Translations under genes and position numbers: made by a program | From: Escherichia coli 042 | GTDB taxonomy: Bacteria; Pseudomonadota; Gammaproteobacteria; Enterobacterales; Enterobacteriaceae | NCBI RefSeq assembly: GCF_000027125.1 | Contig: NC_017626.1 | Reading direction: 5' to 3' (one strand) | Length of the DNA: 64,000 bases | Shown: positions 14,065 to 14,415 of the stretch, one piece after another | How positions within the stretch are numbered: position 1 is the first letter of the stretch | Layout of the letters: each line of letters starts with the position of its first letter | The notes under the pieces: generated by a model | The model's input: the letters and a program-made list of their open reading frames with translations, nothing else | Databases searched by the model: none | What the model was told of the DNA's origin: nothing

Positions 14065-14415
14065 TTAAGGTTGTGATTCCGGAGGAGTCTTCAGAGAACC
14101 AGTAATTCTTCCTGGTAGCTTTCCTTTGTAGGTTATCCACACATTCTGCGCATCTAAAATTACGGGGCGCTTTTCCGGCGGCTGCTCATCCCTTTCACAT
14201 AACCCGGCAGCAACATCCAGGAAGACCTGTCTGATGCTCCTTCTGGCTGCTGCCTCATAAAACTCCAGCGCGGCACCTTCAACACGGTCCAGCGAGATGT
14301 CCAGGTCAAAAATTTCACCGTCAAAGCGTTTTTTGTCCCGTAACGCTAAAGTTACCGTAACTTTATTCTCAAAATTGCGGATCCCTTTCACAATCAGTTC
14401 ATAGTTTTGAGTCAT
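14065..14415 (-). CDS. hypothetical protein inserted between holin and endolysin
   Basis: 116 aa ORF; no TM segment or known lysis motif. Confidence 0.45.
   Translation of the reverse strand: MTQNYELIVKGIRNFENKVTVTLALRDKKRFDGEIFDLDISLDRVEGAALEFYEAAARRSIRQVFLDVAAGLCERDEQPPEKRPVILDAQNVWITYKGKLPGRITGSLKTPPESQP

Follow-up and report, generated by a model that had tools for sequence, protein, structure and literature searches.

A YdfR-family (DUF1327) gene between the holin and lysozyme genes of a prophage lysis cassette in Escherichia coli 042

A lysis cassette in the chromosome of Escherichia coli 042 contains an open reading frame of 116 codons between its holin and lysozyme genes, which raises the question of what this gene is, whether its position is unusual, and whether its product takes part in lysis. 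We examined the gene within a stretch of 64,000 nucleotides of contig NC_017626.1 (assembly GCF_000027125.1), referred to here as the window, and all positions are those of the window unless another locus is named. The ORF occupies 14065..14415 on the minus strand, begins with ATG and ends with the stop codon TAA at 14065..14067. The first-pass annotation, made from the sequence alone, had placed a 116-aa ORF at 14065-14415 between a holin and a SAR-type lysozyme, and both the coordinates and the description were exact. It had also regarded the gene as unknown and as an unusual insertion. This part was not borne out: Pfam, RefSeq and the layout of the Qin prophage point to a named family, DUF1327/YdfR, in the position that ydfR itself occupies in Qin.

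Identity and prevalence of the gene

The identity of the encoded protein was established through the ORF list, Pfam, PHROG and RefSeq. A profile search of the kind that had been proposed for assigning a DUF number was run and matched DUF1327 (PF07041) with an E-value of 2.5e-42, aligning protein residues 1-112 with positions 1-92 of the 93 in the Pfam model. PHROGs 2091 and 406 matched the ORF protein at E-values of 1e-65 to 2e-66, and all five of the PHROGs that matched the ORF belong to the 'unknown function' category. At 99.9% DNA identity, the RefSeq name is 'YdfR family protein', and a search of 5.8 billion proteins returned 291 homologues. It was noted that 59 of the 72 residues of the N-terminal domain are identical to K-12 YdfR (82%). 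DUF1327/YdfR membership was thus returned by every testable criterion, and we consider it practically certain that the window ORF, which is intact, belongs to the YdfR/DUF1327 family of lambdoid prophages and is the local orthologue of ydfR.

Several other identities were examined and set aside. A spurious reading frame was ruled out by homology and by dN/dS; the ORF is coding, as had been left open at first reading, on the evidence of the Pfam and PHROG matches, the 291 homologues and dN/dS values of 0.25-0.43 between diverged alleles. The NCBIfam search of the ORF protein gave 0 matches, a profile search against PDB sequences gave nothing below an E-value of 0.8, and Foldseek against AFDB50 recovered DUF1327 proteins only. 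PADLOC recorded 0 families at E-values up to 0.1 for the window protein and three longer variants, and a known anti-phage defence protein was rejected on this result. Membership of the dsRBD class, judged by an alpha-beta-beta-beta-alpha fold together with a profile match, was rejected as well.

We found that the gene is already known, being annotated under the YdfR name in thousands of genomes. A megablast search with the ORF alone found a match in 3742 of the 5426 complete E. coli genomes, with at least 80% query coverage in 1902, and the four-gene stretch was present at 80% coverage or more in 2211 of the 5426. On chromosomes that are 99.9% identical over the 1.75-kb cassette, RefSeq labels the four genes 'class II holin family protein | YdfR family protein | lysozyme | lysis protein'. 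The position is therefore normal for the family in E. coli, and the gene is of little significance as it stands. Its residual value is as a handle on the role of a protein made beside the pinholin in approximately two thirds of E. coli genomes. The first-pass annotation had also allowed that the ORF might prove to be a conserved, characterised lysis accessory protein; conserved it is, while a characterised lysis accessory it is not.

The lysis cassette and its relatives

The gene upstream of ydfR (14420..14635, minus strand) encodes an S21-type class II holin of 71 aa that matched PHROG holin families at E-values of 2.3e-40 and 8.3e-33 and is named a class II holin in RefSeq. Its dual-start motif is MDQM (MDQMEK...; minus strand), with starts at 14635 and 14626. 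Pfam assigned PF04971 to neighbouring holin genes of identical length, and the window holin is 79-80% identical to the holins of Qin (EssQ) and PhiR30_1. Downstream, a lysozyme of the RrrQ type (177 aa; 13468..14001, minus strand) matched a PHROG endolysin family at 2.5e-62, with 93% identity to K-12 RrrQ and 34% to the 165-aa R21/RrrD-type lysozyme of PhiR30_1. The N-terminal segment of this lysozyme is weakly hydrophobic, as would suit a SAR endolysin. The Rz spanin gene follows at 13007..13471 on the minus strand (PHROG Rz-like spanin, E-values of 1.7e-76 and 4.3e-29; 'lysis protein' in RefSeq), with the Rz1 lipoprotein embedded in it at 13069..13251 on the same strand.

The spacer of 63 nt between ydfR and the lysozyme gene (14002..14064, minus strand) was examined by blastn-short against the fetched loci, by DNA alignment and by RNA folding. 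The last 24-30 nt before the lysozyme ATG (14002..14031, …AAACCGATAAATCCTGATAAATATCC) are conserved in most of the cassettes examined that have the same lysozyme type, whatever precedes them. We read no obvious Shine-Dalgarno sequence for the lysozyme in this 63-nt leader, and the predicted RNA fold did not differ from those of shuffled sequences (z = 0.56). A structured regulatory element in the spacer was dropped as a candidate on that z-score.

We then compared the cassette with its known relatives. The Qin prophage of K-12 (essQ-ydfR-rrrQ-rzpQ/rzoQ) has the same gene order as the window, and K-12 YdfR (b1555) is a protein of the same family in the same slot, flanked by the class II holin EssQ and the lysozyme RrrQ, with the same 4-nt junction. 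Because Qin carries ydfR in this slot, the position of the window gene is normal; the comparison with Qin had been suggested at the outset, and it shows the arrangement to be ordinary rather than unusual. The two proteins differ in length (103 aa in K-12, 116 in the window), and their tails are unrelated past approximately residue 72. In Qin the stop codon of ydfR overlaps the start of rrrQ, whereas the window has the 63-nt spacer instead.

Cassettes of the phage 21/DLP12 type and of the 933W type share with the window the holin type (~80% identical) and the spanins; the phage 21-type comparison was made through relatives and the notes of the H-19B record. In PhiR30_1, the holin gene overlaps the gene for the 165-aa lysozyme by 1 nt and ydfR is lacking, which is the arrangement of phage 21 and DLP12. 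ArgO145 (933W-like) has the same holin type, a 4-nt gap and a lysozyme gene of 534 nt, the length of that in the window, again with no ydfR. The claim that holin and endolysin genes adjoin in related cassettes therefore stands for PhiR30_1 and ArgO145 but fails for Qin, where ydfR lies between them. Among phage records, 101 hold a YdfR homologue, compared to 727 that match some part of the cassette. By this comparison of gene content, ydfR appears to be dispensable for the cassette, since related phages with the same holin and lysozyme type go without it.

A conserved N-terminal domain and a mosaic tail

The conserved N-terminal domain comprises residues 1-73 (14197..14415, minus strand) and was delimited with AlphaFold2, alignment A2 and dN/dS. 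AlphaFold2, run with alignment A2 including distant homologues, gave residues 1-73 a pLDDT of 89.2 and a pTM of 0.75, with three predicted antiparallel strands (5-14, 18-27 and 34-43) followed by a long helix (50-71). The encoded protein is predicted to be soluble and near-neutral, with residues 1-73 forming a compact beta-beta-beta-alpha domain. Across the family in alignment A2, Y53 and E54 are invariant and Y5 is nearly so. Pairwise dN/dS over codons 1-72 was 0.25-0.43 between diverged alleles, where the divergence is informative, which places the domain under purifying selection; values for the nearly identical H-19B-type alleles were noisy (about 0 to 2). The highest 19-residue Kyte-Doolittle mean was 0.69 in the ORF protein against 1.70 in the holin, and no PHROG family of the 'lysis' category matched, so the earlier statements that the protein has no TM segment and no lysis-related motif were both upheld.

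The variable C-terminal tail comprises residues 74-116 (14068..14196, minus strand), as delimited by alignment A1 and the DNA alignment, and its predicted fold is of low confidence (pLDDT <50 for residues 74-110). Family members were found with lengths of 72 aa (phage Evi, which carries the domain alone), 103 aa (Qin), 104 aa, 112-116 aa, 169-183 aa and 263-268 aa. The long variants, including the 176- and 183-aa forms, the 268-aa gp05 of Stx2-converting phage 86 and an unannotated ORF between S and R in H-19B, have the same N-domain, holin junction and downstream lysozyme type. The 114-, 176- and 183-aa forms also have in common with the window a middle segment that runs to 'GSLKTPP'. The window tail tracks these variants to '...GSLKTPP' and then has its own ending, 'ESQP', and a stop codon; it has neither the coiled-coil-like extension at the C terminus nor the small convergent gene that the long forms carry. 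Past ESQP lies a spacer segment of ~50 nt, for which the near-identical strain 1436 of E. coli gave the sole match among the fetched loci, and then the shared 24-30 nt before the lysozyme gene. A comparable short form arose independently in H-19B; 'ctgaagact' is present on each side of the junction there, suggestive of a deletion through microhomology.

It was noted that the extensions of the long variants comprise 150-190 aa without a Pfam domain. Locus L011 2501-3307 encodes gp05 of Stx2-phage 86 (268 aa), and L012 2501-3292 encodes a protein of 263 aa; the annotation of L012 is uncertain because the annotated forward gene shares its sequence in part with an ORF of 233 aa on the reverse strand. 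When the 268-aa variant was searched against Pfam, DUF1327 was the only match, and the long tail matched no domain.

From the AlphaFold2 pLDDT, the dN/dS values, the 72-aa form of Evi and the variable tails, we infer that the N-domain is the functional unit. A different account is that the protein is a neutral passenger without a role, and that the insert, if it matters at all, only takes over the holin-coupled start that the lysozyme gene has in cassettes of the phage 21/933W type, leaving the lysozyme a leader that lacks a Shine-Dalgarno sequence and so altering the ratio of holin to lysozyme. The lysozyme does occupy the coupled position in PhiR30_1 and ArgO145 and lies in the window behind the unstructured 63-nt spacer that lacks a Shine-Dalgarno sequence, and the C-terminal region is, in the DNA alignment, a patchwork of deletions and insertions. 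These features would suit a passenger, while purifying selection on the N-domain (0.25-0.43 between diverged alleles) and its high-confidence predicted fold argue against one. Stand-alone genes of 72-76 aa also persist in other contigs, and relatives of YdfR in AFDB span other genera of Enterobacterales. On balance, we regard a neutral passenger as very doubtful.

Homologues outside lysis cassettes and convergent genes

We sought to characterize the distribution of the domain beyond lysis cassettes. When 1.84 billion representative proteins were searched exhaustively with an HMM, 89 representatives were obtained, among them stand-alone proteins of 72-76 aa and tandem forms, and reciprocal tblastn ties the distant forms back to the YdfR genes of E. 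coli. On the informative contigs, homologues of 72-76 aa were located between gpM-like and gpL-like tail genes at three loci. Further sites of this size class follow a gpI-like gene or separate a tail chaperone gene from the tape-measure gene, and a single tandem form is placed between Q and a holin of a different kind. Because distant members sit elsewhere, the location between holin and lysozyme marks an Escherichia subgroup rather than the whole family. Judged by gene context, the trait shared by these sites appears to be late-operon expression rather than lysis, and the DUF1327 domain is probably not specific to lysis.

A small convergent gene (70-104 aa) was recorded within ~30 nt of the 3' end of the DUF1327 gene, or overlapping it, in 6 of the 7 distant contexts, and the same arrangement was present in 7 of the 13 E. 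coli contexts. Convergent genes, all on the minus strand, were recorded at L009 2744-3040, L008 2958-3218, L011 3317-3631, L015 2979-3239, L018 696-1001, L021 3744-4019, L004 1879-2160, L005 4560-4811, L017 754-966 and L003 693-992. The copies in the window and in Qin have no convergent partner.

At least four groups of partners were distinguished, between which no similarity could be detected, and Pfam and PADLOC gave no identity for the partner proteins. One partner, phrog_25324, is common to the lysis cassette of Evi and the tail site between gpM and gpL (L018), with identities of 61-75%; another, phrog_10490, is common to two different tail sites. Since partner families recur at different sites, it is suggested that DUF1327 and its partner move as a unit. 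The window gene might then be one half, orphaned, of a mobile module of two genes, in which DUF1327 might counter or regulate a partner that is possibly expressed in the lysogen, and the window copy would perhaps be a relic.

Such a module would fit the frequency of the convergent gene (6 of 7 distant and 7 of 13 E. coli contexts), the sharing of phrog_25324 between a lysis cassette and a tail site at 61% identity, the presence of phrog_10490 at two tail sites, and the divergence of the window form from the 176-aa form immediately past 'KTPP', with no partner region. However, the partner groups are unrelated and have no Pfam or PADLOC identity, so that independent moron insertions at a hot spot are an alternative. 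Partner-less forms are also very common and intact, and YdfR would therefore be useful, or harmless, alone. We consider an orphaned module improbable.

Junction with the holin gene and expression

The putative Shine-Dalgarno sequence of ydfR, GGGGAGAG (14423..14430, minus strand), was read within the final codons of the holin gene. On the coding strand the junction runs ...CGG GGA GAG TAA TTCA ATG, that is, GGGGAGAGTAA-TTCA-ATG, with the 3' end of GGAG located 9 nt before the ydfR ATG, the holin stop codon TAA at 14420..14422 and a 4-nt gap at 14416..14419. This junction is kept across the DNA alignment of seven cassettes. By gene coordinates, the DUF1327 ATG lies 3-5 nt past the holin stop codon in 13 of 13 E. 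coli phage and prophage contexts (K-12, H-19B, PhiR12_2, Evi, mEp460, Stx2-phage 86, Stx1_699, PhiR42_1, two chromosomal loci, 2H10, Perceval and BP-4795). The holin genes of these contexts are 207-279 nt long as annotated, mostly 216 nt.

A scan of the coding strand inside the ORF found no promoter-like or terminator-like site, and an Rfam scan inside the ORF matched no RNA family. Because the holin junction is fixed and the ORF lacks such sites, ydfR is carried on the Q-dependent late transcript, and holin and YdfR are probably made by coupled translation. The expectation that the gene would be co-expressed with the lysis genes thus agrees with a start codon 4 nt past the holin stop, GGAG within the holin codons, and the lack of an internal promoter-like or terminator-like site. 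It was also noted that a hairpin with a 12-bp stem followed by TTTTATTGTTG lies at 14674-14702 (minus strand), ~40 nt upstream of the holin start and within the late transcript. The element resembles an intrinsic terminator, which Q-modified polymerase would need to read through.

A junction of this kind invites the alternative that YdfR regulates the timing of lysis, as a soluble cytoplasmic factor, produced at a constant ratio to the pinholin, that would bind the basic cytoplasmic C-terminal tail of the holin or the unreleased SAR lysozyme and so advance or delay triggering. T4 offers a parallel in RIII, a cytoplasmic antiholin with such an effect on the holin T. The start codon is always 3-5 nt past the stop of an S21-type holin, with the Shine-Dalgarno sequence inside the holin gene, in all 13 E. 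coli contexts, and the N-domain is acidic (pI 5.3) and the holin basic (pI 9.6). The strict linkage to S21-type holins within Escherichia would also fit a holin-related role. Against a regulator, the same holin and lysozyme types are present without ydfR in the cassettes of PhiR30_1 and ArgO145, copies of the domain are present in tail clusters, remote from any holin gene, and the protein has no TM or SAR segment and matches no PHROG lysis family. An antiholin in the sense of class membership was rejected, as the protein has no TM or SAR segment and no homology in the lysis category.

Experiments on K-12 YdfR and a candidate role

Published work on the K-12 gene (locus L001 7055-7366) bears on both the regulator and the late accessory. 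A Keio ydfR mutant is among the supplementary hits of a genome-wide CPRG screen for envelope leakiness (PMC3879167), and a screen with an envelope-defective Keio ydfR mutant is also cited in a later study (PMC13232886). Leakiness of the mutant would suit a regulator of lysis timing. On the other side, overproduction of K-12 YdfR gave no growth or lysis phenotype (PMC13232886), and the Keio phenotype may, by our own inference, be a polar effect in which the resistance cassette expresses the downstream SAR lysozyme gene rrrQ. Such an effect is suspected because rrrQ lies immediately downstream of ydfR. Taking these observations with those from the junction, we consider a regulator of lysis timing unlikely.

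The only experimental lead to a late accessory comes from the same later study. Gopel et al. (RNA Biol 2026; PMC13232886) recovered a two-hybrid library clone with ydfR codons 1-72 that gave signals with RNase G and RNase E constructs, while full-length T25-YdfR was positive with Rne 1-597 only. Strep-YdfR co-purified Rne 1-598-FLAG and also large amounts of DNase-resistant nucleic acid (PMC13232886). Overproduction of YdfR caused no growth defect and changed few transcripts, and ydfR was silent under standard conditions (PMC13232886). The authors proposed that YdfR may be an RNA-binding protein and noted that a contaminant could explain the RNA (PMC13232886). Because the pull-downs with purified proteins name YegJ and not YdfR (PMC13232886), the interaction between YdfR and RNase E could be bridged by RNA.

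Because residues 1-72 of the K-12 protein gave the interaction signals, and both RNase E 1-598 and nucleic acid co-purified with it, an activity on RNase E or RNA is the most likely one for this protein. The window allele is 82% identical to K-12 in the exact segment that gave these signals. We therefore propose, tentatively, that YdfR is a late, dispensable, cytoplasmic accessory that acts through its N-domain on RNase E and/or RNA and is not a component of lysis. In this scheme, the product of ydfR, expressed from the Q-dependent late message alongside the holin, would stand outside the holin, endolysin and spanin machine in the manner of a moron. The N-domain would bind RNase E and/or RNA late in infection, and RNA decay would be modulated while the late messages are in use. 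Weak points of the RNase E link are that it comes from one study, of the K-12 orthologue, that the full-length protein was positive with Rne 1-597 only, and that overproduction altered few transcripts. Among the three guesses made at first reading (lysis regulator, antiholin-like factor and moron), the last comes nearest to this proposal.

A broader form of the proposal combines it with the convergent genes. The 72-residue DUF1327 domain would be a late modulator of host RNase E or RNA decay that may travel with a convergent partner into several late-operon sites, namely the lysis cassette, the interval between gpM and gpL, and that between the chaperone and tape-measure genes. If it were true, DUF1327 and its partner would represent a novel type of accessory or self-protection pair in prophages. 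We regard this combination as a rather remote prospect.

Small phage proteins that bind or modify RNase E are reported from other systems, including Srd of T4, gp0.7 of T7 and Dip of phiKZ. Their likeness to YdfR is a functional analogy only, drawn from the co-purification of K-12 YdfR with RNase E 1-598 (PMC13232886). Should the RNase E lead be borne out, the RNA-decay machinery of the host would be a target of temperate lambdoid phages as well as of T4, T7 and phiKZ.

Surrounding prophage region

In E. coli strain 1436, which is 99.9% identical over the cassette, the neighbouring genes belong to a lambdoid prophage whose late region contains, in this order, the Q antiterminator gene, tRNA genes, IraM, the holin gene, the YdfR gene, the lysozyme and Rz genes, an HNH endonuclease gene, terminase, and head and tail genes. 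In the window, two prophage tRNA genes were found downstream of Q on the minus strand, at 16639-16715 and 16816-16891, one for Arg(tct) and one with a CAT anticodon (ARAGORN assigned this second one to Met). The window may have one tRNA gene fewer, because strain 1436 has three (Arg, Arg and Ile). A match to the STnc100 sRNA was recorded between Q and the holin gene at 15753-15942 on the minus strand (Rfam, 132 bits against a gathering score of 47). An IraM-like anti-adapter gene lies on the plus strand at 15392-15727 (NCBIfam, 162 bits; cut-off 121), in the interval between the tRNA genes and the lysis cassette, which is a typical position for a moron. On the other side of the cassette, a 116-aa HNH endonuclease ORF was found at 12614-12964 on the minus strand, directly upstream of the gene for the small terminase subunit; an HNH endonuclease gene before the small terminase gene is typical of HK97-like cos packaging modules.
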